From Auanema rhodensis (Eukaryota > Animalia > Nematoda), in the NCBI GenBank assembly GCA_964057225.1, contig OZ059898.1, forward strand, positions 9,486,001 to 9,550,000: a DNA stretch of 64,000 nucleotides. The letters are read 5' to 3'. Positions within the stretch are counted from its first letter, which is position 1. Each line of letters begins with the position of its first letter. The notes beneath the pieces were generated by a model that worked only from the letters and a program-made list of their open reading frames with translations, was not told the DNA's origin and ran no database searches. Shown piece after piece: positions 1 to 42,778 of the stretch. The position numbers and the translations under genes were made by a program.

Positions 1-39
1 GAATTTCATCAACAGTTTCATACCATCTGTAAATCTCAA

Positions 40-11502: not shown

Positions 11503-12104
11503 TTACGTTGTCAATCGCTCTACTTATAGGACACGTATGGAACATGCCTAATACCGAAAAAAAGTAGCTGACCTCAGCTACATCGAGAAAGTGAAATTCC
11601 ATGCAAATGTGAAAGTTGTATGAAATGTTTAAAAAATAAAAGAATATTGATAATATAGAATAATTTTTTTTGAAAAATAAAAGAAAAAACAATGTGAATA
11701 CAAAATAATACATCATATATCATACTGGGAATCTTTCAATAGTTCTTTTAGTCTTCTTCATAATACTGGTGTATCTCTGGTAATGGTGATGATCCTAGGT
11801 CGTGGAGAAGATCCATAGTCTTGTTGCATAAATCCGTTTTTTTTCCATTTCTTCTTTGGTGGTTGCTGGTGATGCCAGAAATATTTGTAGAGCATTTATA
11901 ATGTTTTTTTTGCCTCTGTGGATGGCAGTTCGCTGCAATGTTGCAGGCTCCATTCTTGATAGGCCGAATGGGTCTCGGCAATAATTCAGTTTGGTGTCTG
12001 CTGTTCTGGTGAATCGCAACTAGGTGAATAACCTAATTGGTCCCTTAGTTCAGCAATGACATCTCGGATGACTGCTGCTATGTTGGCCCATGGTCCTATG
12101 CAGT

Positions 12105-12313
12105 TGTGCGAACGCACTCCATCTTTCCCATACTCTTTTTTGGACAACGATGCACTTTTATTCCCACTATTCTATTCACCTATGACTCATACGTGCCGCA
12201 CACACACATGCAAGTTTATCCGATTACTCCCCAGATGTTCCTTCCTTATTGTCTCTTAAACACATCTGTCCATCTTAACCTTTTATGTTTAATCTTGTTC
12301 TCTTATTGCCTAT
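12105..12313 (+). repeat. BEL 5' LTR, 3'-truncated
   Basis: Near-identical to 40078-40286, then joins directly to Polinton minor capsid sequence. Confidence 0.9.
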
Positions 12314-12646
12314 TATACGTGCTTCTTCCTCAGCTCCAAGAGGCTTTGTATTGTTGGCGATAAATGATTCTCTTCCAGCATTGATTCCGCGTATTATTTC
12401 ATCACCATTTGCATAGTTGCCTTTAGGCAAGTGCAGAATAAATTTTCTATTGGAAAAACGTAGTGTATAAGATAAATCTTTTTGAACATTTAATATAGAA
12501 CAAGGAAAAATGATGTCTGTCAGCCCAATGCAATATCTATTATTGCGTAGCCTTAGTGTTTCAGGTAATCTGGTAAGAAACACTGATGATGTATTACTTT
12601 TTTCAGAGTCAACTGATGATGGAAGAGTAATGTAAAAATCATCCAT
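12314..12646 (-). pseudogene. Polinton minor capsid (penton), 5' fragment
   Basis: Matches the first ~110 aa of 18755-19612 and is truncated at the LTR junction. Confidence 0.9.
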
Positions 12647-12725
12647 GACAAACCACCACTTGATACGTGTACATTATTGCAAATGAAATCATTTGCATTT
12701 TAGGTACATTTACGAGTGGTTGATT

Positions 12726-13373
12726 ATGGTTTTCAGCTTCAAACTACCCAGTCAGACAACTGTAATAGGTGCTACCCAATGCGGTAAAACAACCCTCATA
12801 AAGCACATATGTGAAAATACTGAAAAGTTTTTCAACGTCCCCATTGATAGAATATTCTGGTTCAGTCAATGTGGGTCATCGTCAGGTGTACCAATAAATG
12901 ATGAGCGTTTAATAATTATTCAAGGGCCGCCTGATCATGATTTGATAAAAGAACAAAAGGGAGTAAATACTATACTAGTGCTGGATGATTTGATGAACTT
13001 TTTTTCATCGAATAAAGCAGCAAAGGAATTACAAAACAACATTTTTACAGTATGGGCTCATCACTGGAATTTGGCAGTGTTTAATCTTGTGCAAGCGGCA
13101 TTTCAACTGGACAGGACCAGTCGAATCAATAGTACATATATAATACTGATGAAAAGTCATTCATATATATTACAAATACGTAATTGTCTGCAGCAATTAT
13201 TTGGGCCACATTTCAAAAATGCTCTAGAGGCGTATGATGATGCAATGTCTACTCCCTATAGTCATTTACTGATTGACAATCATCCTTTAACAAGTGAGAA
13301 GCAGCGTATACTATCTGATATAACAGCGGAGAACCCTATTGTTTATGTTGCCAGAAATGTGTTTAGTGTTTAA
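12726..13373 (+). CDS. Polinton A32/FtsK-like packaging ATPase (outer copy)
   Basis: Walker A GATQCGKT, Walker B ILVLDDL, HHWN..LVQ, RINSTY. Confidence 0.9.
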   Translation: MVFSFKLPSQTTVIGATQCGKTTLIKHICENTEKFFNVPIDRIFWFSQCGSSSGVPINDERLIIIQGPPDHDLIKEQKGVNTILVLDDLMNFFSSNKAAKELQNNIFTVWAHHWNLAVFNLVQAAFQLDRTSRINSTYIILMKSHSYILQIRNCLQQLFGPHFKNALEAYDDAMSTPYSHLLIDNHPLTSEKQRILSDITAENPIVYVARNVFSV

Positions 13374-13395
13374 AGTGCTTGTTCAATGAGTGGTC

Positions 13396-14470
13396 AGTAG
13401 AGAGCCGTGCAAAATTTACTAACCACGCCCCCAAACAGTTGCTAAAAACATACTTTTGGGGGCGTCAGCTGCTAAAAACATACTTTTGGGGAGCGTCAGC
13501 TGTCAAAAACATATTTTTGAGCGTCAGCTGTTAAAATCATATTTTGGCATCATGGTTCATGGATTTTCCTTTTTTAAATTTAAAAATCATGATTTAAAGC
13601 ATGATTTTTTTTTTTTTTTTTTCAAATCAAATTTTAAATTTGTTTATTCAAATGTATGTATATAGTTTTAATTATTTTTAAATATATTAAGTAAAAATAA
13701 AAATTATAAATTTTAAATATTTAAATTATATTTAAATTTTATATATATATAAATTATATTTAAACTTTAAATAATTAAATTATATTTAAATTTTATATAT
13801 ATAAATTATATTTAAACTTTAAATATTTAAATTATATTTAAATTTTATATATATAAATTATATTTAAACTTTAAATTTTATATATATAAATTATATTTAA
13901 ACTTTAAATTTTATATATATAAATTATATTTAAATTTTAAATATATAAATTTGTTTTTAAATTTTATTTCTTTCTTTATTTCTTTATTAAATTTATTAAT
14001 AATGTTTGTTTACTTGATTTGTTTATTTTTTATTGTATTGTGTTTGTACTATTTTATTTTAAAGAACAGTAAAATTTTTGCATGTATATCGTTTTGTTCA
14101 CCGTACTTGTTACGGGTAGTTCAATGGAACACATATCGAAGGTTAATTCGATAAGAACGATATGAAATACAAAATTTAATGGAACACATATCGAAGGTTA
14201 ATTCGATAAGAACGATATAAAATACCAAAATTTAATGGAACACATATCGAAAGTTAATTCGATAAGAACGACATTAAATTATTAATTTTTGAAATTACAA
14301 ATTGTTATTAATTATATTTATTCTAACAAGTAAAAGTTTCAAATTAAAAGAAAAGACTAGTTTTAAACTTTATTTTACTAATATAACAATACAATAACTA
14401 AATAGAGCACACATTGAAGGTAAATACAATAAGATTAACAAACAGTTGCGCTGACCTCAATGAAACGCAT
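13396..14470 (+). repeat. Polinton left TIR with 30-bp, AT-rich and 56-bp internal tandem repeats
   Basis: Inverted homology to 28176-29038 and ~33200-34200. Confidence 0.9.
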
Positions 14471-15093
14471 ATCGATGGTTAATAAACAGTAATAACTGCA
14501 CTGTGGGGGTTTAAATATAGTATAATCATTTTAACATTTCAAAAGTTTTAGTTTCGTAATATAATCATTTTTAAATATTCAAGAATGAAATATTTTTACA
14601 TATAAAACGTTGGCAGTCACATGTTTTGTGCTACAATATGGGTGTAAAACTATACTATGAATAATATATGAGCTATTAAGCAAAGTTTAAAAAGCCTAAA
14701 TGTTTTACAGAGATGGCTGTTGTTTATGGCACAAACGGTAAACAATAATGTTTAAAGAGATGTAAAAACTAATTAATATGCAGATTGTTTACAGGTTCAG
14801 AGTGCGCCAACTGTTGGCAACTGTCGATGAGATGAGTATATCTGCATAAATATGCTGTAAAATCTAATTAATAAAAGAATTTCATCAGCAAACTTGATTG
14901 TAACACAATGGGTTGTACTTTACAAAAATCTTTGTATAAAAGGTTGGCAATTTTGCTACATTTACATTTCAGCTCTGCCGACTATCCGAGGATCCGACGT
15001 TTCACCATCTCCTGCCACTCTTTGCCAATCGCCATAGACTGCTCCTCTCTGCAAGTTTGCCTTATATTTTAGAAAGTTGGATCTTTAGCGGAA

Positions 15094-15679
15094 ATGAAGC
15101 GTGCTGTACTTGCTGATGTGACAAATGTTGTGCGCAAATCGCCTGAACCTGAAGTACCACGACCACCCACACCAGCACCAAATTTCACAAGTTTTGGTAT
15201 GAACCTTAACTTGTCTTTTTTAAATCTTTAATTTAGATTCACCAATAAAGCAGATTGAGATTCTGAGAGAGAGCACTCCACCAAGGAGTGTATTAATGAG
15301 ACCGATTTGTCTCTGCAAAACTTGTAGGGAATCATTGCAGGTTATAGACGAGTATCACTGTTTCAGCCTCTGTATAAAGTGTAGAGGAAGGAATGATGCG
15401 TTGGGTCTTTTGAAGGAGTTTCGTCACTATAAGCCCGAAAACTTTTCTATTAATGTAAGCTTGCATATTTATTTATTTTCAATTTTATAATTTTTTTAGA
15501 TGCGCTTTTATAACACCATGACGTGCAAGCAATTGTTGAACAATATGGGCTATATTGTTATATATGCAGATGAGGCTACTGTAAAGACTTTTGGTTATAA
15601 GCAGAATGTATTCTACTTTAAACTAATTCCTGAAGCACTCAACCTGAACATGTTTATCCGCTTTGATCCTTCATTTTGA
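15094..15679 (+). CDS. Spliced Polinton accessory protein, ~166 aa (exons 15094-15196, 15237-15454, 15500-15679); D-box-like N-terminus, CxCxxC...CxxCxxC
   Basis: 40- and 45-bp GT-AG introns give one continuous frame: MKRAVLADVTN...DSPIK...STPPR...CLCKTC...CFSLCIKC...FDPSF*. Confidence 0.65.
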
Positions 15680-15972
15680 CTACAACAAGCACAAATAGTA
15701 CAATTGGCGTTTTATTCTTGTTTTGTTATGTGGCATTTTTATATTCTCAGCCGTAACATTTTTTTTTCCAGCTCTTGCGAATATCCATCAATGGCTCATC
15801 AATTGAGGACGAATGATCAACCAACTGGTAAGAATTTGAAAATTTGAATAGTCTACATTTTTTTTTCCAGGTTGAATTGTTGTTTGTATTTTGCTGGTTT
15901 TTTATTGTTACATTATGCGATATATCAAATAAATCATTTATTATAATTACAATTGTTTATAACATTGAAAAA

Positions 15973-17037
15973 TTATACATTTAAATTTTCTGCATCTATC
16001 CATTCATTAAAGTTGTCGGGATATCCACTCCATTTTACAAATACTTGACGTTTACCGCTTCGAGTACGCTCTTTTAAAACTTTTTCTATATAGTACTTGT
16101 TGCTTTTATTAGTAGCCAAGACAAGTTCAGGTTCGTAGAATATTCCCTTTATACGTTCACCATTATAATCTACAAGTTTATACACGGTTGGGTTTCCGGT
16201 TACAACCTCATCAATTGTGAACAGCTCCATTGTATATCCAGACTCGTAGCTTTTTTCAAAAGTACGCCTATTTTTGCTTATGCGAACAGTATCACCAATT
16301 TTAAAGCGGCTTTTAACAGCTGGTGCATATTCTTCAATGAATATATTTGCTTTAACATCAATGGGCCGCATTTTTATAGAGCGGTTATAAGATTTGTTTA
16401 TTCCTTCAACCAAATCATCTAGGATATCAATCCAACGATGATTATTCTTGTAATAGAGATATTTCATCATGCGTGTTTTTAAAGTTCTATTTGCTCGCTC
16501 CACCATTGCAGCCTTTTGTGGTGAACTTGTAGATCCGTGCAGTATGGCAAACTTTTTGAATAGTTTTTCACAATGACTATTATAAAACTCTGTGCCATTA
16601 TCAGTAATCAACTGAATTGGTATAAAATTCTTGAATAAATTTTCAAATGCACTAGCAACCTCTATACCACCTTTAGTTTTCAAAGGCCTAACATATAACA
16701 TGCGTGAAACATCAATCATGGTCAACATGTAAGCATAGCCGTCGTTTAATTTTTTATATTTTTGCATATCAACCAAATCTGCTTGCACTGTTAGAAATCG
16801 ACCACATCCTCTAGTCTTTCTAGTCTGCATACGCATTCTGGTTGGTTTATGCCGTGTAAAAGTTTCAGAATCTTGCAAAAAATCATCAACTTGTACCTTT
16901 GAAATGCCATGTTTTCGTGCTTGCGATAATAAATTCTTGGCTGATGTATATGAAGCTGGATGTTTTATATCGTAATAAATGCTCGCCAAAATATCATTTC
17001 CATAATCTAATGTAGAACCTTTTACGACCTTGGCCAT
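15973..17037 (-). CDS. Polinton retroviral-like integrase with C-terminal chromodomain
   Basis: QADLVD / TDNGTEF / VERANRT DDE triad, and YYIEKVL...VKWSGY...EWI chromodomain. ATG inferred at MAKVV. Confidence 0.92.
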   Translation of the reverse strand: MAKVVKGSTLDYGNDILASIYYDIKHPASYTSAKNLLSQARKHGISKVQVDDFLQDSETFTRHKPTRMRMQTRKTRGCGRFLTVQADLVDMQKYKKLNDGYAYMLTMIDVSRMLYVRPLKTKGGIEVASAFENLFKNFIPIQLITDNGTEFYNSHCEKLFKKFAILHGSTSSPQKAAMVERANRTLKTRMMKYLYYKNNHRWIDILDDLVEGINKSYNRSIKMRPIDVKANIFIEEYAPAVKSRFKIGDTVRISKNRRTFEKSYESGYTMELFTIDEVVTGNPTVYKLVDYNGERIKGIFYEPELVLATNKSNKYYIEKVLKERTRSGKRQVFVKWSGYPDNFNEWIDAENLNV

Positions 17038-17710
17038 TCTGTGTTTCTCCCGCCTGAGGTGTGTAATATGATTCGGCGGCAGTATCAAAAGTCTTTGACC
17101 TTTTACTTTTGAGTGTACGAACCGGTGATGGTGAATATCGAATAACAGCTTTACGATGACGAGGCGTTCTAGGTAATATAGTAGAGTCCAAGTCTGTAAC
17201 AGCCGGTTCAGCTCTAGTTACAACGTCAACTGAATCATTGTCAGCCGACTCTCTTCTAGTTTGTTTCTTGTTAGAACTAGATACGCCTTTACTGGCTAAA
17301 AACTTTGACAAGACTGAAAATCCATTGGGCTCCGTTTTTGTTTTATCCAGTACAAAATCTAAAATTTTTGTAATATTCGTGTTTGGTACAGCCTCATTAT
17401 TAATCACAAGTTGGTTATTCTTGTTTGTGCGCACCTCTGGAAATTTCTCCCACAAATTGTTATACTTTCTTGGCAACTTGTATTCTGGCAATAGAGGTGG
17501 ATCAACATTTTCCACTTGTACTGATATGGGCGCATCTATACTTTCTCTATAGTTTTTGAGACGAGCAATCAAGTCTTCGTATAGTTCAGCCTTTTTATAG
17601 TCGGGTATAGCTCTATTTTCTCGTAAAAGCTTGAGCTCTGCATCAAACTTGTCTATATTAATTGTTTCCTCGTCGACAGGAATTAGTCGATATTTATGGT
17701 TGAGCTTCAT
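16994..17710 (-). CDS. Polinton uncharacterised protein (238 aa) with basic S/T-P-rich C-terminus
   Basis: Intact in both copies, overlaps neighbouring ORFs in a tightly packed cluster, ends QNGQGRKRF. Confidence 0.8.
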   Translation of the reverse strand: MKLNHKYRLIPVDEETINIDKFDAELKLLRENRAIPDYKKAELYEDLIARLKNYRESIDAPISVQVENVDPPLLPEYKLPRKYNNLWEKFPEVRTNKNNQLVINNEAVPNTNITKILDFVLDKTKTEPNGFSVLSKFLASKGVSSSNKKQTRRESADNDSVDVVTRAEPAVTDLDSTILPRTPRHRKAVIRYSPSPVRTLKSKRSKTFDTAAESYYTPQAGETQNGQGRKRFYIRLWK

Positions 17711-18015
17711 GATTTAAAACCAAAATAGGCAATACCACATGTAACTATTGTTTTCAATTGTTTGTGTGAAAGCGTTGCCAATAATGATTTAGCCTTTTCC
17801 GGTGTGCGTATCAAAGCTATTTGACGTAATAATGAAGATATGGGCAAGAGGGTTTTATATTCCTTGTTAGTTAAAAGAAAATTATTATTTTTCACAATAT
17901 TAAATACAATTTCAACAATAATTTCAATTTGTGCAAAAGAAAATGAGGAAACAGAACAAGGAGTTTTGGCGCAAGAAGACAAAAAGTTGAAATTTGACAA
18001 AATACGACCACTCAT
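17707..18015 (-). CDS. Polinton small uncharacterised protein (102 aa)
   Basis: Intact in both copies. ATGA stop/start overlap with the downstream ORF. EIVFNI motif. Confidence 0.75.
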   Translation of the reverse strand: MSGRILSNFNFLSSCAKTPCSVSSFSFAQIEIIVEIVFNIVKNNNFLLTNKEYKTLLPISSLLRQIALIRTPEKAKSLLATLSHKQLKTIVTCGIAYFGFKS

Positions 18016-18027
18016 TGAACAAGCACT

Positions 18028-18675
18028 TTAAACACTAAACACATTTCTGGCAACATAAACAATAGGGTTCTCCGCTGTTATATCAGATAGTATACGCTGC
18101 TTCTCACTTGTTAAAGGATGATTGTCAATCAGTAAATGACTATAGGGAGTAGACATTGCATCATCATACGCCTCTAGAGCATTTTTGAAACGTGGCCCAA
18201 ATAATTGCTGCAGACAATTACGTATTTGTAATATATCTGAATGACTTTTCATCAGTATTATGTATGTACTATTGATTCGACTGGTCCTGTCCAGTTGAAA
18301 TGCCGCTTGCACAAGATTAAACACTGCCAAATTCCAGTGATGAGCCCATACTGTAAAAATGTTGTTTTGTAATTCCTTTGCTGCTTTATTCGATGAAAAA
18401 AAGTTCATCAAATCATCCAGCACTAGTATAGTATTTACTCCCTTTTGTTCATTTATCAAATCAGGATCAGGAGGCCCTTGAATAATTATTAAACGCTCAT
18501 CATTTATTGGTACACCTGACGATGACCCACATTGACTAAACCAGAATATTCTATCAATGGGGACGTTGAAAAACTTTTCAGTATTTTCACATATGTGCTT
18601 TATGAGGGTTGTTTTACCGCATTGGGTAGCACCTATTACAGTTGTCTGACTGGGTAGTTTGAAGCTGAAAACCAT
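18028..18675 (-). CDS. Polinton packaging ATPase
   Basis: Walker A GATQCGKT and Walker B LVLDDL. Confidence 0.92.
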   Translation of the reverse strand: MVFSFKLPSQTTVIGATQCGKTTLIKHICENTEKFFNVPIDRIFWFSQCGSSSGVPINDERLIIIQGPPDPDLINEQKGVNTILVLDDLMNFFSSNKAAKELQNNIFTVWAHHWNLAVFNLVQAAFQLDRTSRINSTYIILMKSHSDILQIRNCLQQLFGPRFKNALEAYDDAMSTPYSHLLIDNHPLTSEKQRILSDITAENPIVYVARNVFSV

Positions 18676-18754
18676 AATCAACCACTCGTAAATGTACCTA
18701 AAGTGCAAATGATTTCATTTGCAATAGTGTACACGTATCAAGTGGTGGTTTGTC

Positions 18755-19612
18755 ATGGATGATTTTTACATTACTCTTCCATCATCAGTTGACTCTGAAA
18801 AAAGTAATACATCATCAGTGTTTCTTACCAGATTACCTGAAACACTAAGGCTACGCAATAATAGGTATTGTATTGGGCTGACAGACATCATTTTTCCTTG
18901 TTCTGTATTAAATGTTCGAAAAGATTTATCTTATACACTACGTTTTTCCAATAGAAAATTTATTCTACACTTGCCTAAAGGCAACTATGCAAATGGTGAT
19001 GAAATAATACGCGGAATCAATGCTGGAAGAGAATCATTTATCGCCAACAATACAAAGCCTCTTGGAGCTGAGGAAGAAGCACGTATAAAAAGTTTAATAG
19101 ATAAAGATGAAGATGTAAAAAAATGGTATAATAATCGCCAGGCTGAGGCTAAGCTAGTGGAGGAAATGCTCGCAGACGCCACATTTCAGTTTAACAAAAC
19201 ATTGCAGCGCATAGAGTTTGTAACAAGCAAGCGACTATTAATGAATGCAACGCTTGATGATGATTTTGCATATTTTCTTGGTTTTGAAAATAAAAACATC
19301 AACGATACAATAATAGCCAGGGGTCCCATTGATTTTTCAAATAACATTAATACAATGTATATATATTGTGATATTGTAGAATATTCCATTCTTGGTAATG
19401 TGAAAGCTAATTTACTTGCATGTTTGCCTGTACCACCTCCTACTGAATTTGGTAAAATGATTGCCAAAACATTTAATCCTATTCGTTATGTACCAATCAC
19501 TAGACAAACACTCGATACCATATGTATTGAAATTTTAGATGAATTTGGTCGTCCTATGCAATTTAATTATGGTTCTACAGTTGTTACATTGCATGTTAAA
19601 AATATGAAATAA
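18755..19612 (+). CDS. Polinton minor capsid protein (penton, single jelly-roll)
   Basis: Typical motifs DFYITLPS, NTSSVF, YIYCDIVEYSILG, PIRYVP, DEFGRP and VVTLH. Confidence 0.88.
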   Translation: MDDFYITLPSSVDSEKSNTSSVFLTRLPETLRLRNNRYCIGLTDIIFPCSVLNVRKDLSYTLRFSNRKFILHLPKGNYANGDEIIRGINAGRESFIANNTKPLGAEEEARIKSLIDKDEDVKKWYNNRQAEAKLVEEMLADATFQFNKTLQRIEFVTSKRLLMNATLDDDFAYFLGFENKNINDTIIARGPIDFSNNINTMYIYCDIVEYSILGNVKANLLACLPVPPPTEFGKMIAKTFNPIRYVPITRQTLDTICIEILDEFGRPMQFNYGSTVVTLHVKNMK

Positions 19613-19617
19613 ACGTT

Positions 19618-20082
19618 TTATTCAACAGTTATACAATACCACATTTTTATTTTCGAAGGTTTAAAAGATAGTTTAGGGCAGTTTTGTTTGTCGCTCGGCT
19701 CGTGTTGTGAATGTTCTCCGTCACTATTGCTGCGGCATCTTTTTGATTGGGTTGAATGTACAAACTCCTCAGCTTTTTCAAAGGGTTTGCTGGTATCATT
19801 TCCATCACCATCTTCACTATTCGTTCCATTATTATTATGAATACGCCGAATATGACGCTCACAATTGAATCTTGTTCCAAAAGTTTCACTACAATGAGGG
19901 CACAAACGTCTACGAACACCATCCAAATGTCCATATTTTTGAATAAAGTCAGCATTGCTGATATAATTGTTACATATGGGTTGAATCCCTGCATGTCTTT
20001 TCAAAACGTGATCACTAAAATGCTTGGTTGAAGAAAATATTTCCTTGCATGTACCACAATATTTGTTACATAAAAGTTCCAT
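19618..20082 (-). CDS. Polinton protein with two C2H2 zinc fingers
   Basis: YCGTCKEIFSSTKHFSDHVLKRH and LCPHCSETFGTRFNCERHIRRIH. Confidence 0.8.
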   Translation of the reverse strand: MELLCNKYCGTCKEIFSSTKHFSDHVLKRHAGIQPICNNYISNADFIQKYGHLDGVRRRLCPHCSETFGTRFNCERHIRRIHNNNGTNSEDGDGNDTSKPFEKAEEFVHSTQSKRCRSNSDGEHSQHEPSDKQNCPKLSFKPSKIKMWYCITVE

Positions 20083-20335
20083 TAGAGGAAAATGAAAAAC
20101 GACCACACGCAATCAACCCACTTTTATATAATGAGCAATAATATGACTAGTGTTGTACAAAAGCCCAATCCCAATGCTATACCTTTAATAAATGGCACTG
20201 AAATACATTTCAACATTCTCCTGTATAAAGGCGCTGGTTTAGATTGCTCCAACGTGTATTTGACACATAATTCACAGTGACAAGGAATATTCATAACTGA
20301 CCACGTAATGTAGCAGGTTATTAATGACAAATTTC

Positions 20336-20791
20336 TTATATAGTAGCCAATTTATAGTCGAATACTTTATGCATAAACGCTTTAATAAAGACATCATCAT
20401 TTTTCAATAGTTTAAAAAATGAACAAATGCTTTCAAATGAATTACCAGCCGACAACATTAGTATTACAAATACCACGTAGCCACCACAAGTGTATTCAAT
20501 TATACGTTGTGGTTTGCAAGTATTAATTTTTACCTTTTTATATTTGGCCAGATAATTTTGAATGTACTTGTTCATTTTATATCCCAAGCTACAGAAAAAA
20601 TAGGCTTGCTTGTTACGGACAAAGATGACCTGCCAATGTGTGCCTGGCTTATCATGTGTGTCAGTATTTACGACAAGTGCAAAGTTTTTACGACGCGTTT
20701 TGGGTAGAGTATCAGCGCTATATACACCGAGGAATAGTTTCCGAGTGCTGGGTACAGATTGCAATAGTGATACTATTTCAGACGAATACAT
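20336..20791 (-). CDS. Adenain/Ulp1-like cysteine maturation protease
   Basis: FLGVYSAD, NTDTHDKPGTHW, Q...TCGGY. Confidence 0.88.
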   Translation of the reverse strand: MYSSEIVSLLQSVPSTRKLFLGVYSADTLPKTRRKNFALVVNTDTHDKPGTHWQVIFVRNKQAYFFCSLGYKMNKYIQNYLAKYKKVKINTCKPQRIIEYTCGGYVVFVILMLSAGNSFESICSFFKLLKNDDVFIKAFMHKVFDYKLATI

Positions 20792-20842
20792 TTTAGTAGA
20801 ATGATCTAGTGTAACTTTTGTATTGCGCGCGTGCGGTTCGAT

Positions 20843-21295
20843 ATGCCGCACCTCCTTTTGGATGTCAACTCTATTCAATGGACAACACTTTTAAATCAAC
20901 AAATGGGTGGCGCCCCATTTAGCGGAATGATGTTTCAACATGGAATGCAGAGGGGTCATGGTTTGGGTGGTATTTTGGCAACTTTGGCATCATTTCTACC
21001 ACGCATCATTCAATCACCTATAGCCCAAAATCTCATCAATGCCGGAAGAAACGCCTTATCCAGTGCTGTAAGCAATAGTCCAGTTGTAAATTCACCTCTT
21101 GGCGGACAGTTGCTGAAAACTGGTAATGAAATTGTCGATGGGGTGCTGAAAGGCGATAATATCAAGGAAACTCTTAAAACAGCCGGCCGACAAGCTATAC
21201 GAGATCTTACCGGCTTGGGCAAACGGCGACGACGCAAAACCACAAAACCTCATAAGCGGTTGTGCATCACTCGTGAGCGGTCGTTTCACATTTAA
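20843..21295 (+). CDS. Putative virion core / membrane-active protein (protease substrate)
   Basis: QMGG, MQRGHGLGGILATLASFLP amphipathic segment and basic tail GLGKRRRRK. Its stop abuts the MCP ATG. Confidence 0.7.
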   Translation: MPHLLLDVNSIQWTTLLNQQMGGAPFSGMMFQHGMQRGHGLGGILATLASFLPRIIQSPIAQNLINAGRNALSSAVSNSPVVNSPLGGQLLKTGNEIVDGVLKGDNIKETLKTAGRQAIRDLTGLGKRRRRKTTKPHKRLCITRERSFHI

Positions 21296-22630: not shown

Positions 22631-22774
22631 TGTATGTAATAAATTCTTTAAAAGATTTAAGAATAAAATTTATTAATACCACTATTTTTAAAAATAAATA
22701 CATGTACAATGATAAAATTTTATAAATACAAATATATACAAGATAAAAATTTATAAATTCAAATATATTAAAAC

Positions 22775-27978: not shown

Positions 27979-28175
27979 TGTACCTTGATATAATGAATAT
28001 ATCAGTCTACACATTGCTGTTGGCATTGTAATTTGTTATGTAACATGGATTTGGGTACAGCTGTCAAAACTAGCAGTTGCGATAAACTTTAAAATAAATA
28101 AGCTTATTGAATACATCTGTTTTTATTGTCCCCATCGGATTAATTTTTGTTATTAGTTCTTATTAAATTAACTTC

Positions 28176-29038: not shown

Positions 29039-29073
29039 GTGGTCGTATTTTGTCAAATTTCAACTTTTTGTCT

Positions 29074-29667: not shown

Positions 29668-29679
29668 AGTGCTTGTTCA

Positions 29680-29988: not shown

Positions 29989-30701
29989 AGCTCAACCATA
30001 AATATCGACTAATTCCTGTCGACGAGGAAACAATTAATATAGACAAGTTTGATGCAGAGCTCAAGCTTTTACGAGAAAATAGAGCTATACCCGACTATAA
30101 AAAGGCTGAACTATACGAAGACTTGATTGCTCGTCTCAAAAACTATAGAGAAAGTATAGATGCGCCCATATCAGTACAAGTGGAAAATGTTGATCCACCT
30201 CTATTGCCAGAATACAAGTTGCCAAGAAAGTATAACAATTTGTGGGAGAAATTTCCAGAGGTGCGCACAAACAAGAATAACCAACTTGTGATTAATAATG
30301 AGGCTGTACCAAACACGAATATTACAAAAATTTTAGATTTTGTACTGGATAAAACAAAAACGGAGCCCAATGGATTTTCAGTCTTGTCAAAGTTTTTAGC
30401 CAGTAAAGGCGTATCTAGTTCTAACAAGAAACAAACTAGAAGAGAGTCGGCTGACAATGATTCAGTTGACGTTGTAACTAGAGCTGAACCGGCTGTTACA
30501 GACTTGGACTCTACTATATTACCTAGAACGCCTCGTCATCGTAAAGCTGTTATTCGATATTCACCATCACCGGTTCGTACACTCAAAAGTAAAAGGTCAA
30601 AGACTTTTGATACTGCCGCCGAATCATATTACACACCTCAGGCGGGAGAAACACAGAATGGCCAAGGTCGTAAAAGGTTCTACATTAGATTATGGAAATG
30701 A
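29985..30701 (+). CDS. Polinton 238-aa protein, second copy
   Basis: Identical protein to 16994-17710. Confidence 0.8.
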   Translation: MKLNHKYRLIPVDEETINIDKFDAELKLLRENRAIPDYKKAELYEDLIARLKNYRESIDAPISVQVENVDPPLLPEYKLPRKYNNLWEKFPEVRTNKNNQLVINNEAVPNTNITKILDFVLDKTKTEPNGFSVLSKFLASKGVSSSNKKQTRRESADNDSVDVVTRAEPAVTDLDSTILPRTPRHRKAVIRYSPSPVRTLKSKRSKTFDTAAESYYTPQAGETQNGQGRKRFYIRLWK

Positions 30702-31725
30702 TATTTTGGCGAGCATTTATTACGATATAAAACATCCAGCTTCATATACATCAGCCAAGAATTTATTATCGCAAGCACGAAAACATGGCATTTCAAAGGT
30801 ACAAGTTGATGATTTTTTGCAAGATTCTGAAACTTTTACACGGCATAAACCAACCAGAATGCGTATGCAGACTAGAAAGACTAGAGGATGTGGTCGATTT
30901 CTAACAGTGCAAGCAGATTTGGTTGATATGCAAAAATATAAAAAATTAAACGACGGCTATGCTTACATGTTGACCATGATTGATGTTTATACACGCATGT
31001 TATATGTTAGGCCTTTGAAAACTAAAGGTGGTATAGAGGTTGCTAGTGCATTTGAAAATTTATTCAAGAATTTTATACCAATTCAGTTGATTACTGATAA
31101 TGGCACAGAGTTTTATAATAGTCATTGTGAAAAACTATTCAAAAAGTTTGCCATACTGCACGGATCTACAAGTTCACCACAAAAGGCTGCAATGGTGGAG
31201 CGAGCAAATAGAACTTTAAAAACACGCATGATGAAATATCTCTATTACAAGAATAATCATCGTTGGATTGATATCCTAGATGATTTGGTTGAAGGAATAA
31301 ACAAATCTTATAACCGCTCTATAAAAATGCGGCCCATTGATGTTAAAGCAAATATATTCATTGAAGAATATGCACCAGCTGTTAAAAGCCGCTTTAAAAT
31401 TGGTGATACTGTTCGCATAAGCAAAAATAGGCGTACTTTTGAAAAAAGCTACGAGTCTGGATATACAATGGAGCTGTTCACAATTGATGAGGTTGTAACC
31501 GGAAACCCAACCGTGTATAAACTTGTAGATTATAATGGTGAACGTATAAAGGGAATATTCTACGAACCTGAACTTGTCTTGGCTACTAATAAAAGCAACA
31601 AGTACTATATAGAAAAAGTTTTAAAAGAGCGTACTCGAAGCGGTAAACGTCAAGTATTTGTAAAATGGAGTGGATATCCCGACAACTTTAATGAATGGAT
31701 AGATGCAGAAAATTTAAATGTATAA
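30658..31725 (+). CDS. Polinton integrase-chromodomain, second copy (intact)
   Basis: DDE motifs plus chromodomain; retains IDVYTR. Confidence 0.92.
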   Translation: MAKVVKGSTLDYGNDILASIYYDIKHPASYTSAKNLLSQARKHGISKVQVDDFLQDSETFTRHKPTRMRMQTRKTRGCGRFLTVQADLVDMQKYKKLNDGYAYMLTMIDVYTRMLYVRPLKTKGGIEVASAFENLFKNFIPIQLITDNGTEFYNSHCEKLFKKFAILHGSTSSPQKAAMVERANRTLKTRMMKYLYYKNNHRWIDILDDLVEGINKSYNRSIKMRPIDVKANIFIEEYAPAVKSRFKIGDTVRISKNRRTFEKSYESGYTMELFTIDEVVTGNPTVYKLVDYNGERIKGIFYEPELVLATNKSNKYYIEKVLKERTRSGKRQVFVKWSGYPDNFNEWIDAENLNV

Positions 31726-32020
31726 TTTTTCAATGTTATAAACAATTGTAATTATAATAAATGATTTATTTGATATATCGCATAATGTAACAATAAAAAA
31801 CCAGCAAAATACAAACAACAATTCAACCTGCAAAAAAAAAAATGTAGACTATTCAAATTTTCAAATTCTTACCAGTTGGTTGATCATTCGTCCTCAATTG
31901 ATGAGCCATTGATGGATAATCGCAAGAGCTGGAAAAAAAAATGTTACGGCTGAGAATATAAAAATGCCACATAACAAAACAAGAATAAAACGCCAATTGT
32001 ACTATTTGTGCTTGTTGTAG

Positions 32021-32577
32021 TTAAAATGAAGGATCAAAGCGGATAAACATGTTCAGGTTGAGTGCTTCTGGACTTAGTTTAAAGTAGAATACATTCTGCT
32101 TATAACCAAAAGTCTTTACAGTAGCCTCATCTGCATATATAACAATATAGCCCATATTGTTCAACAATTGCTTGCACGTCATGGTGTTATAAGAGCGCAT
32201 CTAAAAAAAATGATAAAATTGAAAATAAATAAATATGCAAGCTTACATTAATAGAAAAGTTTTCGGGCTTATAGTGACGAAATTCCTTCAAAAGACCCAA
32301 CGCATCATTCCTTCCTCTACACTTTATACAGAGGCTGAAACAGTGATACTCGTCTATAACCTGAGAGACAAATTGGTCTCATTAATACACTCCTTGGTGG
32401 AGTGCTCTCTCTCAGAATCTCAATCTGCTTTATTGGTGAATCTAAATTAAAGATTTAAAAAATACAAGTTAAGGTTAAACTTGTGAAATTTGGAGCTGGT
32501 GTGGGTGGTCGTGGTACTTCAGGTTCAGGCGATTTGCGCACAACATTTGTCACATCAGCAAGTACAGCACGCTTCAT
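32021..32577 (-). pseudogene. Disrupted copy of the spliced accessory gene
   Basis: Homologous to 15094-15679. The first splice donor is deleted (~32477) and there is a ~23-bp deletion in exon 2 (~32365). Confidence 0.6.
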
Positions 32578-34200
32578 TTCCGCTGAAGATCCAACTTTCT
32601 AAAAATTAAGAAAAACTTGCAGAGAGGAGCAGTCTATGGCGATTGGCAAAGAGTGGCAGGAGATGGTGAAACGTCGGATCCTCGGATAGTTGGCAGAGCT
32701 GAAATGTAAATGTAGCAAAATTGCCAGCCTTTTATACAAAGATTTTTGTAAACTACAACCCATTGTGTTACAATCAAGTTTGCTGATGAAATTCTTTTAT
32801 TAATTAGATTTTACAGCATATTTATGCAGATATACTCATCTCGTCGACAGTTGCCAGCAGTTGGCGCACTCTGAACCTGTAAACAATCTGCATATTAATT
32901 AGTTTTTACATCTCTTTAAACATTATTGTTCACCGTTTGTGCCATAAACAACAGCCATCTCTGTAAAACATTTAGGCTTTTTAAACTTTGCTTAATAGCT
33001 CATATATTATTCATAGTATACTTTTACACCCATATTGTAGCACAAAACATATGACTACCAACGTTTTATATGTAAAAATATTTCTTTCTTGAATATTTAA
33101 TAATGATTATATCACGAAACTAAAACTTTTGAAATGTTAAAATGTTTATACTATATTTAAACCCCCACAGTGCAGTTATTAGTGTTTATTAACCATCGAT
33201 ATGCGTTTCATTGAGGTCAGCGCAACTGTTTGTTAATCTTATTGTATTTACCTTCAATGTGTGCTCTATAGAGTTATTGTATTGTTATATTAGTAAAATA
33301 AAGTTTAAAACTAGTCTTTTCTTTTAATTTGAAACTTTTACTTGTTAGAATAAATATAATTAATAACAATTTGTAATTTCAAAAATTAATAATTTAATGT
33401 CATTCTTATCGAATTAACCTTCGATATGTGTTCCATTAAATTTTGGTATTTCATATCGTTCTTATCGAATTAACCTTCGATATGTGTTCCATTAAATTTT
33501 GGTATTTCATATCGTTCTTATCGAATTAACCTTCGATATGTGTTCCATTAAATTTTGGTATTTCATATCGTTCTTATCGAATTAACTTTCGACATGTGTT
33601 CCATTGAATTACCCATAACAAGTACGGTGAACAAAATTATCTACATGCAAAAATTTTATTGTTCTTTAAAAATAAAAACAGTAAAAAAACACAATATTAT
33701 AACATAATAAACAAAATAAGTAAACAAACATTATTAATAAATATAATAAATGAACAAAGTAATAAAATTTAAAAACAAATTAATATATTTAAAATTTAAA
33801 TATAATTTATATATATAAAGGTTAAATATAATTTAAATATTTAAAGTTTAAATAAAATTTATATATATATATAAAATTTAAATATAATTTAAATATTTAA
33901 AATTAAGATTTTTATTTTACTTAATATATTTAAAAATAATTAAAAACATATACATACATTTGAAAAAACAAATTTAAAATTTGATTTAAAAAAAAAAAAA
34001 AAATCATGATTTTTAAATTTAAAAAAGGAAAATCCATGAACCATGATCCCAAAATATGATTTTAACAGCTGACGCTCAAAAATATGTTTTTGACAGCTGA
34101 CGCGACCCAAAAGTATGTTTTTAGCAGCTGACGCCCCCAAAAGTATGTTTTTGACAGCTGTTTGGGGGCGTGGTTAGTAAATTTTGCACGGCTCTCTACT

Positions 34201-37200
34201 GATAACGCCTCAAAAGGAAACGACTAAGCTCAGAATAGTCTACGATGCCTCCGGACATTACCAAAACAAGCCAAGCTTGAACGACGTCATTCACCAAGGC
34301 CCATTAATCCTTCCTTCTCTTATAGGGATGATACTACGATTCAGATGCGGACCAATAGCAATGATTGCTGACGTTAAAAACCCCTTTCTTCAAATCCGAC
34401 TACACAAATCCGAAAGAGACGCGACACGATTCTTCTGGTTAAATGACATCAATCAACCAATCACACCAGAAAACATAAGGACACTTCGTTTTTGCCGAGT
34501 TCCGTTTGGCATCAACGCTTCTCCATTCCTACTCAGCGCAACTATACGCTATCATCTGATGCAAAGAAGTTACGAAAACTTTCTTGCCCATCAAATAAAG
34601 GAAAACCTCTACGTCGACAACTTACTCTTAGCATGTGATTCGAGCGAAAAGATATGTCTCTGGTATCAAGACATCAAAAACATATTCGCAGAAATGAATA
34701 TGACACTCCAAGAGTTCATATCTAACGACGCTACCTTCAACAACAACCTCAGTATGGAAAAGAAAAACAGTTCAACAACACCCAAAGTATTGGGACTACC
34801 TTGGGACACCAAGACTGATCAATGGATTATCGAGACGAAGATAACAGAAACAAAACCAACCAAAAGAGGCATAACTCAAGCTATAGCCTCAATCTTCGAT
34901 CCTATGGGAATGATCTGCCCCAGCCTTCATCCACTCCGTCTGTTTTTACAATCACTGTGGACAGAAAATTTTGACTGGGACACAACACTTCCCCATGAGC
35001 TGCAACAAAAATGGAAAGAATTGTCAGACAATTTCCACATGGTAAAAGCGATTCCTCGCTCACTACCATCAGACCCAACAAACTCATATCATCTGGTCAC
35101 CTGCGCAGATTCCAGCGGATCTGCGTTAGGATTTTGCGTCTACATCTTATCAGCATCAACTCGCAAACCCAGACTCATGTTTGCAAAATCAAAGTTGCAC
35201 TCCAAGAATTCATCCATCACGATCCCAAAAGCAGAAATCTCTGCTCTCACAATAGGAGTATCAAACACTCTGAAAATCGCCAAAGAAATCAGAAACAACA
35301 TCAAGATAGAAACTGCTACCTTTCTATCCGACTCTGAGATAGCACTTGCTTGGATCCGACAGAAACCAGACCAGAAAACAACTGGAGTCTTGGTACAAAA
35401 CCACATCAAAGAAATCAACGAATGCGCAGAACAACTGGAAGATATGGAAATAAAGACCTTCTTTGGTTATATCAACACGAAGGATAATCCAGCCGACATC
35501 GCCACAAGAGGTTGTACCACAGCAGAGCTAAGTGACCATTACTGGTGGAATCCACAAGCTCAACTCGAACGAGCAATCAATGGTCCATTATTCACTCTTC
35601 CACAGAATGAAGTGAATGTTCACATGACAACTACGGATGACGACTCAAACGAAGAACCATGGATATCAGACTGTTCCTCATGGACACAGGCACAAGAAAA
35701 ATGGATAGCAACTCATTATCCACTCACTGAAGCTTGTACACCTCAATATTATGAAGAAGCAGAACTAAATCTACTACACCTTCATCAAAGAAATTTGATG
35801 GTTCGTCTGACAGCAGCCCAAAGAAACGATCTCCGTCCACTCCTCAGAGATCACCTCTGGCACAGTAGAGGACGAATGGAAAACGCTGAGCTAGAGCAAT
35901 CAGCTAAGCTTCCTATCATCATCCTTCCCAAAACACCAACCGCACGACTCCTCATAGAGCACTTCCATGAAAAATTTCACAAAAGTACTGCTCATACCAT
36001 GGCGGAGGTACGACAAAAATACTGGATTCCTCAACTACGTTCCCAGACACAAGCAGTCATAAGGAAATGCGCAAACTGTCAAAGGCTTAACAACCGGCCA
36101 TTTACATACCCTCCATCAGGAAACGTACCATCCAGACGACTCCAACGAAGCCAACCCTTCAAACATGTAGGTCTCGACTACTTCGGACCCATCACAGTCA
36201 AAGACGGAAATACGAAAGTCTGGAGCTGCATCTACACCTGCACGGTGACAAGACACATCCATCTTGAGGTGATTCACAACCTCACAGCTACCGCATTTCT
36301 CAACTGTTTACGAAAAATCTGGGCACGACGTGGATGCCCATCGAGAATAACCTGCGACAACGCAAGCACCTTTGAGCTTGGTCAAAAGGTTGCAAACAAA
36401 CTCTTCACTACAACAGACAGCGGAAATCAATACAAAATTCGCTGGCACAACATCACCCCCTATGCCCCATGGCAAGGCGGTTTTTACGAAAGACTTATTA
36501 GGTCCGTGAAGGAAGCTCTCTACAAAACACTCCACAGTACTCCAACTACTGAAGAGCTCACAATAACCCTTGCAGAGTGTGAAGCTACAATAAACACACG
36601 TCCACTCACATACATCGGTACAGATACCAACAAAGATGAGATCATACGACCATGCGATTTCATCTATAAAGACATCGACTTGAACATCTCTGTCGAATCA
36701 GAAGAAGAAATGGATGAGTATTACATTGACAGCGCAGCGCTACAAACTCAAGCTGATACAGAACGAGCCATTCACTTATCAAGGAAACGCACAAACAAGT
36801 TCTGGGAACTCTGGACAGACCTATACCTGAAAGAGATCCGCGCTACGCACCATCACAACATTTCAGTTAAGAAAGCGGGAACAAAGTTAACTCCATTCAT
36901 CGGTCAAATCGTCCTAATCAACGAGCTTCCCATTCCCCGTCACAAATGTAGTACGGGAAAAATAACTCAAGTTCACCCCGACAGATCAGGAAACATCAGA
37001 GAAGCAACGCTGATTTCGGAAACAGGTCGAGAAATAAAAAGACCTGTCAACTTACTGCACTCATTGGAAATCTCAGATAACGAGATCCCAGAAAAACTCA
37101 AAGATAACGCAACACCAAAAGAACCTGTTCATGAAAAAAGAAGAACCAACTTACGCTACTTACCACAAGTATGGTACGGAGATACAACCAATACACTCCT

Positions 37201-39778
37201 CACTTTCTTCACAATACTAGCGATTTTTGGACCAATGGCCTCAGCAAACCCAACAATTTCATGCAACTCCCACGGAGTTCATATCCATGGAATCAGTACG
37301 GCAAACCAACAAGTGTGCATCCAAAACACATGCTTCAACAGTAGTAACAACGGAGACGTCACTCTTCCCACGGCAGAAAAACTGACGGACTATCAAGTCA
37401 GTTGGACATTTTTTCACAACTCCAGACTTCAACACATGTACTTAACATGCCCAGGAGTCCACTTCTGCTCTACAGTTACCTGCACATTTTGTACAGCAAC
37501 CCTGCTCAATCCATCGTGTTGGCCTTGGACTTCAATCTTGCTAGTGACACTCATAGTATACATGATCACAGCCTTATGCTACGGATTACTATACACACCA
37601 TAGGTTATCGGCAAACCAATTCGTCTGTGGTGCTATATAATCTTCTCACTCACACTGACAATTGGACGAAGATTGAAGTAACTCTTCTCAAAAAGAAGGC
37701 AATCTGTCATTCCTCTTCTTGCAATAATACTGTTAGAAATAGGAAACACCTCTGCATGTCAAGAATTGAACATGATTTCAACAAAAGAATCGTCATGCAC
37801 TCAAAACGAATGTCGAATCCGAACATCAGAACGACTTACCATCAGCCCATACAGTCAGGAAGCATGCCTCTCATTTACCAACAACGATGACAAAATCACT
37901 TTCCTACGCATCCAGTGGATCAAAAGCACTTATTCTTGCGAAGTAAATTCATTATACTTCACTAGAGAAAGCATCACCCAAGTCCAAGACAGCAAACGCT
38001 GCCCACTAACTGGATCCTGCCAAGAGACAAAATGCGCCATGATCAGAGAAGACACCAAGATCAATGAACTAACAATGGCCAACCAATACCCAGGACAAAC
38101 ATTCTGCACAGAATCTTGTGGAGGCATTGGCTGCGGATGCTTCTATCCATCATCCGGTTGCCTCTTCTACAGAACGTATATGAAACCCACGGACAAATCC
38201 ATTTACAAAGTCTTCACTTGCACAGAATGGTCACAATCTACTCAGATGCTACTTACCTATCAAAATGGAACGAATATAATTACCAGAAACATCACCTTAC
38301 ACGGCGATTTGATTTCTTTGTCTCCATTCAAGATAACACTTACCAGCATTACTTCACCCGTCATACCAGCAATGCATTACAAATTCATTCGAAATCTGAA
38401 GAAAACAGCAGTCTGGAACCAACCAGCAACTCTATCTTGCTCATCAAGAGAGAAAGCAATAAAAATGGAATGCCAAGCTACTCCACATTGCGATTGTTCA
38501 CCAGCCGAAGATACCGTGAATTGTCGATGCAAAGACTACTCTTTGAATACATCATTTGAAAATGTGAAAAGTGCCTTACCACTCATCACACCTGCCTACT
38601 CCATCGAATCTTCAAATCGCAAAGTTCACATAACTGTCAACCGTAACATTATGGCCGAACTACACATCACAATTGATGGCAAATTCCAAAGCTCATTCAA
38701 TTACAGCTCGGAATTTTGCGACATAACAGACTCCATGTTAACAGGCTGTTACAACTGTCAAAACGGAGCACAGGCTAAAATTATATGTTCCTCATCAACA
38801 AATACTCTCGCGGCAACAACTTGCGAAGGTACAGCATTCATGCTACACTGCAGCCCTGAAGGAACAATGAACACTATTCGACTTCCAATGACAACAGCTT
38901 CACCTCGGACACAGTGTTCATACACTTGCGGAAAACAAACGAAGTCATTTTTGCTCACCGGAATATTATATTACGTGAATAATATGGAAGATCTCAACAA
39001 ACACTGCGTCGATGGAAATCACTCCTCCATTCATGAGTCAGTTATATCTTTCCCATGGCCTGATATCACTCATTTCTACGACATTTACCTTAACTGGTAC
39101 CGAGAACTTCTATTTTGTCTCATACTGATATTATCCGCATTGGCCATTTCGTATTACATCATGACGACATACTCCATCGCCATCGCGAGCAACACACTTT
39201 TCTTCGCCATCAGAATTATTAAAACAACGCTCCACCTACCCATCGTTACGCTTCGTTTCCTCAGGCGCCTCCTCTTCCTCATCACTCAACGGAAGACCCA
39301 CGTCGCTATCATACTCTTATTCCTAATCATGACAACTCACGCCACCACTTTTCGCGAAACTCTTGCTTCCTCAGCCGAGAGAAAACAATCATATTTACGT
39401 CTGTCCTTAGACAAAAGAAATGATTACTACAAGGGCCTATTGCAATCCATGGATCTATCTCTGAAAACTTTATTCCAACTTGAAGCGATTACGAATACTA
39501 CTGCTAGAGACATCCAACTTGCCGCTACTGATATTCTCTGTTATTTCATCAAAATAAAAGACTTTATCAACACAGCCAGGACCTATAATGTATTCGAAAA
39601 GGAGCTTACTGATCTACAACTATTTGGAAACGAGAAACGACTCACCGAATTGGTGGAAAGGATTCATAAGGACCACTTGGACGACGTAAAATTGGACATG
39701 CCCTACGATCCTTTGAGGGCCCATCAAGAAAGAGAAGCTGTGAAACATCGCCTCCACGCAAATCGAACATCATTGTAG
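34201..39778 (+). pseudogene. BEL/Pao pol-env polyprotein (RT, RNase H, integrase, Gn, Gc, C-terminal extension) with two in-frame stops
   Basis: KLRIVYDAS, YVDN, DPMG, DSEIAL, NPADIATRG, GLDYFGP / CDNA / GGFYERL. Cys-rich Gn, and Gc KRCPLTGSC...CTESCGGIGCGCFYPSSGCLF. ORFs 34184 and 37766 share a frame, separated by TAG 37601 and TAA 37679. Confidence 0.92.
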
Positions 39779-40077
39779 TGGAAGCGCAACCAGAACTCAA
39801 GCTTCTGGTAAATGAGATGAAGGATCTCCGCAAGGACATCCAACAACTTACAGCACCATTGAACCTCATCATTGAGGAACTTCGCTGCATCAAAAACCTC
39901 TTCCAGAAGAGGTCTTTACCTGATATCTGCACACAAGGGACTCAAACTCCCTCCAAGCCAAAGCTGAAGGAGACAGAAGCCACACCACCAAACAAGCCCT
40001 CGACGAGCAAGGAATCTCTGCCTTCCTACGTCGACCTTTTCTGAACAATGCTATTATAGCATAATCGGCGGCGGGAG

Positions 40078-40738
40078 TGTGCGAACGCACTCCATCTTTC
40101 CCATACTCTTTTTTGGACAACGATGCACTTTTATTCCCACTATTCTATTCACCTATGACTCATACGTGCCGCACACACACATGCAAGTTTATCCGATTAC
40201 TCACCAGATGTTCCTTCCTTATTGTCTCTTAAACACATCTGTCCATCTTAACCTTTTATGTTTAATCTTGTTCTCTTATTGCCTATAGTCTATTTTAATC
40301 TTATGAATTCGTTTAGCTCAATCAATAATCTTGTAAGTTGCAATCGAGGTCTAAATGGCTCATGACTCATTCGCCCACTCGCGCATCCTGCAAAATCTGG
40401 GAGATGCCGCACAGGATAAGACATGACTCATCTACACTTAGCCTGCCCCCACAACTGACAGCAGAAGGCACATTCAATCTGTGGCAAATGCTGTATTCTC
40501 TGTATATTCTATTCTATTCTAATATTCAGCCCACGTATCTGCTCCATATTTACTTTGTATTCTTGCTTCGTATTGTGTTCATCTATATTCCTATTTTTGT
40601 CAAAGTTGTCTTTACCAGTTCTCTCTTAATAAATCGTTGTCCAAGGAACCTAGCGTTCTCGTTCTCTACACTTCAAATCCACTGAACCACTCATGCCTGT
40701 TTTACGCTCTCCTACTTCAAAGGACTCCAGTCAAAACA
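40078..40738 (+). repeat. BEL 3' LTR (661 bp)
   Basis: Follows purine tract GGCGGCGGGAG; TGT...ACA; AATAAA at ~40628; TSD GCAGT follows. Confidence 0.85.
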
Positions 40739-41180
40739 GCAGTGGTCGACCTCCGACAGTCGATCCTTGTCGTATTGGTAACATAGGATTTTGAGCGTTT
40801 CAGTGCTGGCATTCGCTCTTGTTAGTCCTTGAACTAACTCTTTCAGGATCTTCTCTTTTCTGGGGCGGTTGCCGATGGTATTGGCTCCTAGCTGTTTCAA
40901 TTCTCTTACTAATAATTGAATTGAAAGCCATCTCTTTTTGGCCATCATGTGGGGGATTTCGACGGCTTCAGGAAGTTGGGTGGACATTGTTGTCTTTGGT
41001 ACTGTTTTCTATCCTTTTATTCTTTTAAAACTTAGTCGGTCCTTTCCTTTCTTTTTGTCGCCTCCTTTTTGGCCAGTTAGGTAAAAAGGTGATGAGGATT
41101 TTTAATTAAAAAACTTTGCAGTGATGTTTGAAAGATTCCAAGTATGATGTATAATTTTATTTTGAAATTTTGGTGATTAA

Positions 41181-42774: not shown

Positions 42775-42778
42775 TATA

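Follow-up and report, generated by a model that had tools for sequence, protein, structure and literature searches.

A Polinton within a Polinton within a BEL retroelement of Auanema rhodensis, with a predicted intron-rich polymerase gene

We analyzed a stretch of 64,000 nucleotides from the nematode Auanema rhodensis (GenBank assembly GCA_964057225.1, contig OZ059898.1, positions 9,486,001 to 9,550,000 of the forward strand; hereafter the window) and found three virus-like elements nested in one another: a BEL retroelement with an envelope gene (env), a broken Polinton (or Maverick) inserted at the start of its reverse transcriptase (RT) region, and a related, full-length Polinton lying inverted inside the first. 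Target-site duplications (TSDs) and empty sites show that the BEL element entered first, the outer Polinton second and the inner Polinton third. The left arms of the BEL element and the outer Polinton were lost in a deletion, and we consider it probable, with real room for doubt, that 2.75 kb was later copied by repair from the inner Polinton into the outer one. The most unusual feature of the locus is the intron-rich, fusogen-less make-up of the inner Polinton. A preliminary description of the window had proposed the nest, which proved to be real, and all six of its junction coordinates were right.

Insertion order of the three elements

The BEL element is bounded by the TSD GCAGT at positions 12100-12104 and 40739-40743 (both on the + strand), as had been described. 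Its 5' long terminal repeat (LTR) survives as the first 209 of 661 bp (12105-12313, +), agreeing at 208 of 209 sites with 40078-40286 of the complete 661-bp 3' LTR (40078-40738, +), which has TG...CA ends and an AATAAA at 40628; a purine-rich tract lies upstream of the 3' LTR. With the 5' LTR cut, the window by itself does not establish where the LTR ends. As outside evidence, we used short-read contigs from four of the 11 public runs found (from three studies), each of the four containing about half of the sampled words of the window. The preliminary description had named beforehand, as a test, an end of the family LTR at 40738; a contig of run X4 indeed matches the LTR up to 40738 and then continues into internal sequence with a start resembling a primer-binding site. 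In a contig of run X7, the upstream flank is joined to 40739 with a single GCAGT, an empty BEL site; this flank is a high-depth repeat, and the empty site may be that of a paralogue.

Only three Polinton ends occur in the window, and the third, at 34200, stands directly against the BEL pol frame at 34201. BEL contigs start at 34200 in all four runs, and those of X1 (with 533 more letters) and X4 extend past it into sequence that is not Polinton, so a Polinton interrupted a continuous BEL pol region here. Base 34200 is compatible with both elements, and GATAAC at 34201-34206 is the putative surviving copy of the outer Polinton's TSD.

The inner Polinton is full length (13396-29038, 15,643 bp), has the inverted ends AGTAGAGAG and is flanked by the TSD GTGGTC at 13390-13395 and 29039-29044 (both +). 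The target also occurs uninterrupted, with one GTGGTC, at 18006-18011 and 29684-29689; this empty site in cis means that the inner TSD is not a chance hexamer. The terminal inverted repeats (TIRs) measure about 1.07 kb on the left (13396-14470, +), where an AT-rich array occurs besides the subrepeats described below, and about 0.86 kb on the right (28176-29038, -). Subrepeats of 30 and 56 bp are found at 13436-13547, 28887-28998, 34048-34160 and 14123-14279, and their unit variants and numbers vary among the three Polinton ends as if shuffled by slippage.

Structure and history of the outer Polinton

The outer Polinton is an inverted copy of the inner element's left part, and it is not collinear with it. 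Its left remnant (12313-13395, +) is the inverted copy of inner 19088-18006 and carries the N-terminal part of a penton-like gene (-) and an ATPase gene (12687-13373, +). Beyond the inner element, 29 bp (29045-29073, +) continue this remnant and equal inner 18005-17977 exactly. At 29073/29074 the sequence jumps back to the equivalent of 18621, creating a 645-bp overlap, with 1 bp of microhomology at the joint, or 4 bp with a 3-bp slip. A tract nearly identical to inner 18621-15868 follows (29074-31830, +), with the C-terminal part of the ATPase gene, two ORFs and the integrase gene, and then a non-coding arm with the surviving TIR (31831-34200, +; compared with inner 14170-15867). The preliminary description was right that a second Polinton entered the first; the jump and the 2.75-kb near-inner tract had escaped it, and insertion alone does not produce them, so a further event is needed. 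In all four runs, contigs proceed from 29074 into a normal ATPase start, which makes the 29073/29074 junction a local one. An inversion between the Polinton arms was rejected because the TSD pattern is intact.

The left side of the nest was lost in a deletion, as had been proposed, which runs from the 5' LTR into the penton-like gene. Lost with it were the rest of the 5' LTR, gag, protease, the RT start, the outer left TSD and 9,950 bp of outer Polinton sequence, and its junction at 12313 has 1-4 bp of microhomology, resembling the joint at 29073/29074.

Divergence from the inner element changes abruptly along the outer one. The tract at 29074-31830 differs at 3 of 2754 sites and by one 3-bp indel, the non-coding arm at 35 of 1698 sites (Fisher p=4e-12 against the tract) and the left remnant at 14 of 1083 (p=5e-6 against the tract). 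Over the 616 bp present in three copies, the left remnant is the odd copy at six of the nine variable sites. Outer and inner differ at 29 sites in 31831-33150; 14 of these are among the 40 of 196 rows listed, and at all 14 the runs, taken as outgroup, carry the inner element's letter. Where the outer element has its two gaps in this interval, the runs have sequence, just as the inner one does. Within the tract, there are at least four sites at which outer and inner agree with each other and differ from all four runs; at 29244, the only one of those listed that the left remnant covers, the remnant agrees with the runs.

A five-step history would account for this structure. The BEL element entered a high-copy repeat and duplicated GCAGT, as the empty site shows. 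A Polinton then entered BEL at the RT start, as shown by the unbroken BEL contigs, its left TSD being lost later. The second copy entered inverted, 14 bp past the first one's ATPase stop, duplicating GTGGTC, as the empty site in cis shows. A deletion, before or after this insertion, fused the penton-like gene with the 5' LTR where the two share 1-4 bp, probably by theta-type end joining. Finally, a break just right of the inner Polinton was probably repaired via one-sided invasion: the outer arm would have primed on the homologous inverted inner arm near 15868, and synthesis would have copied 2.75 kb past the interruption site, overshot by 645 bp and rejoined at 29073 via microhomology, 35 bp from the inner end, where homology was too short. 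A single copying event would account for the 645-bp overlap as well as for the near-identity of the tract. Repair scars that show microhomology and contain DNA copied from the neighbourhood are described in PMC2671141 and PMC4888836. Likely, this repair also rebuilt an uninterrupted integrase-ATPase stretch from the neighbouring copy.

Several points weigh against this history. No read or contig spans any junction of the nested allele in the four runs; among the matches listed, none has a contig or joint over 34200/34201 or 29073/29074. Short-read contigs holding about half of the words do not prove absence, and the four runs seem not to carry this nested allele, judging from their BEL copy, which differs by about 2% (78 of 3479 sites in X7). 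The tract differs between outer and inner at two adjacent sites, one single site and the 3-bp indel, all of which must be later mutations if copying took place. The letters private to the outer element could also stem from a haplotype of the family that none of the four runs contains; the mosaic might then be older than the insertion. The direction of copying is indicated by rough rates only.

We weighed repair copying against other histories. Three Polintons may have been involved: 29074-34200 would belong to a copy that entered the RT, 12313-13395 and 29045-29073 to another copy lying within or next to the first, and the inner element would have entered that other copy, two deletions then shortening them. 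The left remnant differs from the right arm at 8 of 616 sites, above the 3 of 616 between the right arm and the inner element; the family looks multicopy, Polinton contigs in the runs having about 5-40 times the depth of BEL contigs (a depth ratio, not a copy number); and several Polintons are described at one C. elegans locus (PMC11414722). We nevertheless regard this history as unlikely, as it requires three insertions and two deletions in a window with only three Polinton ends and leaves the sharp change at 31830/31831 still unexplained. An identical final sequence would result from separate events, in which a 645-bp tandem duplication in the outer Polinton was followed by insertion of the inner one into the first unit and then by gene conversion of one inverted arm by the other. 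Such conversion can take place over a distance of 10 kb, but this history takes two additional events in place of one and requires the start of the converted tract to match the duplication junction by chance, so that we give this sequence of events only a slim chance. As a side observation on the run contigs, X1, X4 and X7 show a second Polinton subfamily over 29139-31533, about 7-12% diverged and of similar depth.

An error of assembly or polishing, with inner reads placed over the outer arm or a mis-join at 29073/29074, has to be considered because three near-identical copies lie within 22 kb without spanning reads, and such problems are reported for endogenous virophages (PMC8547959). It appears about as improbable as separate events: with only 1-4 bp shared at the junction, an assembler has no path across it, letters of their own persist in the left remnant and in the non-coding arm, the tract retains its 3-bp indel and three substitutions, and all TSDs fit. 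Nor is the nesting at all likely to be a targeted safe-harbour strategy of an integrase attracted by retroelements or by members of its own family. That one insertion followed another at this locus, and that Polintons cluster at eri-6/7 (PMC11414722), would fit such targeting, and yet this is one locus only, the window is crowded with fragments of Gypsy, BEL and Tc1 elements next to a satellite of 15 kb and is tolerant of any insertion, and the related mavirus-like elements are described as lacking sequence-specific integration (PMC8547959). Preferential landing in own copies and retroelements is accordingly very doubtful. We read the nest as the passive outcome of insertions into repeat-rich DNA that tolerates them. 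As such it has no function, and it provides a clean, ordered record of virus-like elements piling up and recombining there.

Age of the nest

The two LTR pieces differ at 1 of 209 sites (exact 95% interval 0.01-2.6%). For the inner TIRs the difference is 2.2% (11 of 500 alignable sites), an excess that is not significant (p=0.2). A supposed age conflict between TIRs and LTRs was rejected, since a TIR figure of 4.7% takes in the AT-rich array, which aligns poorly, and the value from cleanly aligned blocks is 2.2%. The left remnant differs from the inner element by 1.3%, and the BEL element from the runs' BEL copy by about 2%; taken together, these four figures fit roughly 1% of change per copy. 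If the differences in the near-inner tract arose in place, the copying event would be about ten times younger. The earlier statement that all of this is recent holds as far as the low divergence throughout is concerned; its LTR basis comprises only 209 bp, and the TIR difference of 2.2% and the two stops in env show wear. The nest is young but decaying, as indicated by the TIR differences and the two in-frame stops in the BEL env. The outer Polinton and the BEL element are dead. The inner Polinton is probably impaired; its signs of wear are the TIR differences, an integrase one codon short and a polymerase motif B off the conserved pattern at one position. Identity between neighbouring copies does not by itself date insertions.

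Introns in the polymerase gene of the inner Polinton

The protein-primed PolB gene of the inner Polinton (22775-27978, -) matches profile PF03175 (E=2e-22 and 7e-17) and comprises 14 exons and 13 predicted spliceosomal introns. In a list of open reading frames (ORFs) it looks shattered, and each interruption consists of a short, AT-rich stretch that has splice sites at its ends. Twelve of the predicted introns measure 42-46 nt and one, which contains no ORF of 100 aa, 563 nt; 12 are of the GT-AG and one of the GC-AG type. Each of the 14 exons is free of stops in the phase handed on by the preceding exon; at one intron, the first donor tried gave stops and the next GT gave an open frame.

Over the last ten exons, the exon ends fall on adjacent or near-adjacent residues of Caenorhabditis protein-primed polymerases (for P0012, 782/783, 812/813 and 1249/1250), and two in-frame introns appear as clean inserts of 14 and 15 residues relative to Auanema and C. 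nigoni proteins. The four 5' introns are predicted from splice signals and the open frame alone. The intron at 23770 begins at a lysine, and in two of four relatives (P0093 and P0095, 55-58% identity) the match ends 3-5 residues beyond this lysine, a sign of an old intron shared with them. With canonical splicing assumed, the predicted protein deviates from the conserved polymerase motif B at one position.

The possibility that PolB is a decayed gene was rejected because the breaks coincide with GT/GC-AG introns, as was an origin of the introns from one repeated introner, since the best pairwise local score was 25 and no family emerged. The same intron filter applied to the other core genes, which are single ORFs, gave only two weak candidates. 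Intronless core genes are a described trait rather than a strict criterion of these elements, and the 13 predicted PolB introns depart from it. The best named PolB matches are to Caenorhabditis (35-37%) and Auanema (65% over half of one exon).

We consider it fairly likely that the inner element represents an intron-rich lineage of nematode Polintons. A broader proposal, an undescribed and still-moving nematode lineage that lacks a fusogen, depends on the spliceosome (13 introns, at least one of them ancient), is missed by ORF-based surveys and prefers its own copies and retroelements, seems to us quite unlikely. Surveys demanding uninterrupted ORFs would score intron-rich Polintons as decayed. 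In a literature search at title and abstract level, in which subscription papers and supplements were thinly covered, no published description of introns in Polinton polymerases was found, and an earlier mention is possible. Introners in dinoflagellate elements are described as mostly gained after integration (PMC12166617).

Gene content of the inner Polinton and the BEL element

The inner Polinton carries all core genes, the minor capsid gene being a likely assignment. An integrase with a chromodomain (stop-to-stop ORF, 15973-17217, -) matches Pfam rve at E=2e-5, below Pfam's cut-off, and Chromo at E=4e-8, and near 16706 it is one codon shorter than the outer copy at 30478-31725. Two ORFs of unknown function, of 239 and 106 aa (16994-18027, -), had no match in Pfam. 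They are followed by a packaging-type ATPase gene (18028-18714, -) with the Walker A motif GATQCGKT, whose near-identical copy at 12687 gave weak Pfam P-loop matches. The likely minor capsid (penton) gene (18728-19612, +) was assigned from size and position; its Atlas feature matches (0.98) are only to unnamed Preplasmiviricota/Nucleocytoviricota clusters. A C2H2 zinc-finger ORF (19618-20112, -), an adenain-like maturation protease (20336-20890, -; Pfam Peptidase_C5, E=0.0013) and a basic, Gly-rich ORF that probably encodes a core protein (20810-21295, +) precede the double jelly-roll major capsid protein (MCP; 21296-22630, +). The MCP had no PDB match by sequence and was assigned from a structure model (pLDDT 73, 8 sequences) that matches iridovirus, mavirus, PBCV-1 and Sputnik capsids at E ~1e-15.

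The inner element thus has the features by which Polintons/Mavericks are recognized: TIRs of 100-1500 bp, a TSD of 5-8 bp, a protein-primed PolB and a retroviral-type integrase, together with a double jelly-roll MCP, an ATPase and an adenain-like protease. Inside its TIRs there is no unassigned ORF above 300 aa and hence none of fusogen size, no profile search for a spliced fusogen having been made. Between TIR and integrase there is no GC-rich cargo (GC 0.33). Among viral contigs, none of 38 candidates was a close relative with flanks, and metagenome contigs gave three short loci at 25-32%.

In the BEL element, pol from the RT start (YVDN) through RNase H/A17, integrase and DUF5641 to the first part of env (34201-37603, +) and a Phlebovirus-Gc-like part of env (37682-39778, +; Pfam Phlebovirus_G2, E=5e-84; best PDB sequence match 7a4a, E=2e-39) lie in one frame, and in-frame stops at 37601 and 37679 interrupt env. 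Pfam matches cover RT, Peptidase_A17, integrase, DUF5641 and Phlebovirus_G2. The TG...CA LTRs, the 5-bp TSD, the order of RT, RNase H and integrase, the YVDN motif and the Gc-like env are those of BEL/Pao elements (Belpaoviridae). Both gag and protease are deleted from this copy, a loss that marks a defective BEL copy and not another family. A second piece of the BEL family, without LTRs, lies at 5402-6085 (-) and is 96.6% identical to 36480-37163 in the DUF5641 region. The fusogen-less Polinton beside a retroelement env represents possible raw material for envelope capture. Capture of this env by a Polinton was rejected: the TIRs do not enclose it, and on its far side there is no additional Polinton end.

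Relation to known elements

Nematode Polintons/Mavericks, as described by Jeong et al. (10.1101/2023.08.22.554363) and Widen et al. (10.1101/2022.07.12.499685), are 13-25 kb long, with long TIRs and a 6-bp TSD, as is the inner element, and share with it protein-primed PolB, integrase, ATPase, protease and MCP. The inner element differs from those described there in that it lacks both an ORF of fusogen size and a GC-rich cargo between its TIR and the integrase gene; the Caenorhabditis-type Maverick has a fusogen (MFUS-1/PC1, 866 aa in C. plicata). The core genes of the Maverick of Widen et al. are given as intronless, unlike the inner PolB. Vertebrate Mavericks (Barreat and Katzourakis, PMC8097293) share the AGT end motif, TIRs, 6-bp TSD and core genes, and that paper, citing Kapitonov and Jurka 2006, describes the genes of intact elements as without introns, again unlike the inner PolB.

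The BEL element resembles the nematode belpaoviruses Atlas virus and Cer13 (PMC9094657) in its YVDN motif, in having pol and env in one frame and in its Gc-like env; compared with them, it lacks gag and protease and has a cut 5' LTR and two env stops. At the C. elegans eri-6/7 locus, PMC11414722 describes several Polinton copies at one locus, later rearranged among themselves, as here, whereas no host gene is involved in our case and the order can be read from TSDs. Virus-like elements are also nested where Ngaro retrotransposons occur in EMALEs and other retrotransposons in cryptophyte Polinton-like viruses (PMC8547959 and PMC12220804); there a retroelement enters a DNA virus, whereas here a DNA element entered a retroelement and then its kin. 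Duplication by synthesis-dependent strand annealing (Pace et al., PMC2671141) likewise copies nearby DNA into a transposon break and ends in a microhomology joint; the case proposed here differs in its 2.75-kb tract, its one homologous end and its inverted donor 10 kb away.

The BEL and Polinton types are both known, and retroelements in Polinton-like elements as well as Polinton clusters with rearrangements are already in print. The title- and abstract-level search found no TSD-proven Polinton inside a Polinton, and a prior mention is possible. Where insertions are tolerated, a single case of this kind, next to a satellite and among repeats, is ordinary and to be expected.

Surrounding repeats

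The window is a repeat graveyard with pieces of Gypsy, BEL and Tc1 elements and a satellite, and no Rfam match was found in it. The nest is framed by a 512-bp direct repeat (97.7%) at 10999-11510 and 41181-41692, which includes the end of a Tc1-like transposase gene; the two copies enclose a high-depth repeat of about 1 kb that was the BEL insertion target. Inverted copies (93-95%) of a DDE_3 transposon-like element occupy 1-5056 and 46042-48522, the left one split by inserts that include Gypsy pol at 1985-4109. Two Gypsy-type pol pieces (1634-3033 and 6520-8005) are 67% alike and lie on opposite strands. At 41631-43956, two diverged Tc1/Tc3-like transposase genes lie back to back and are 63% alike as an inverted pair. 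The satellite (48643-63993) has an AT-rich unit of 232 bp in 66 copies with 96% matches and runs to the window end.

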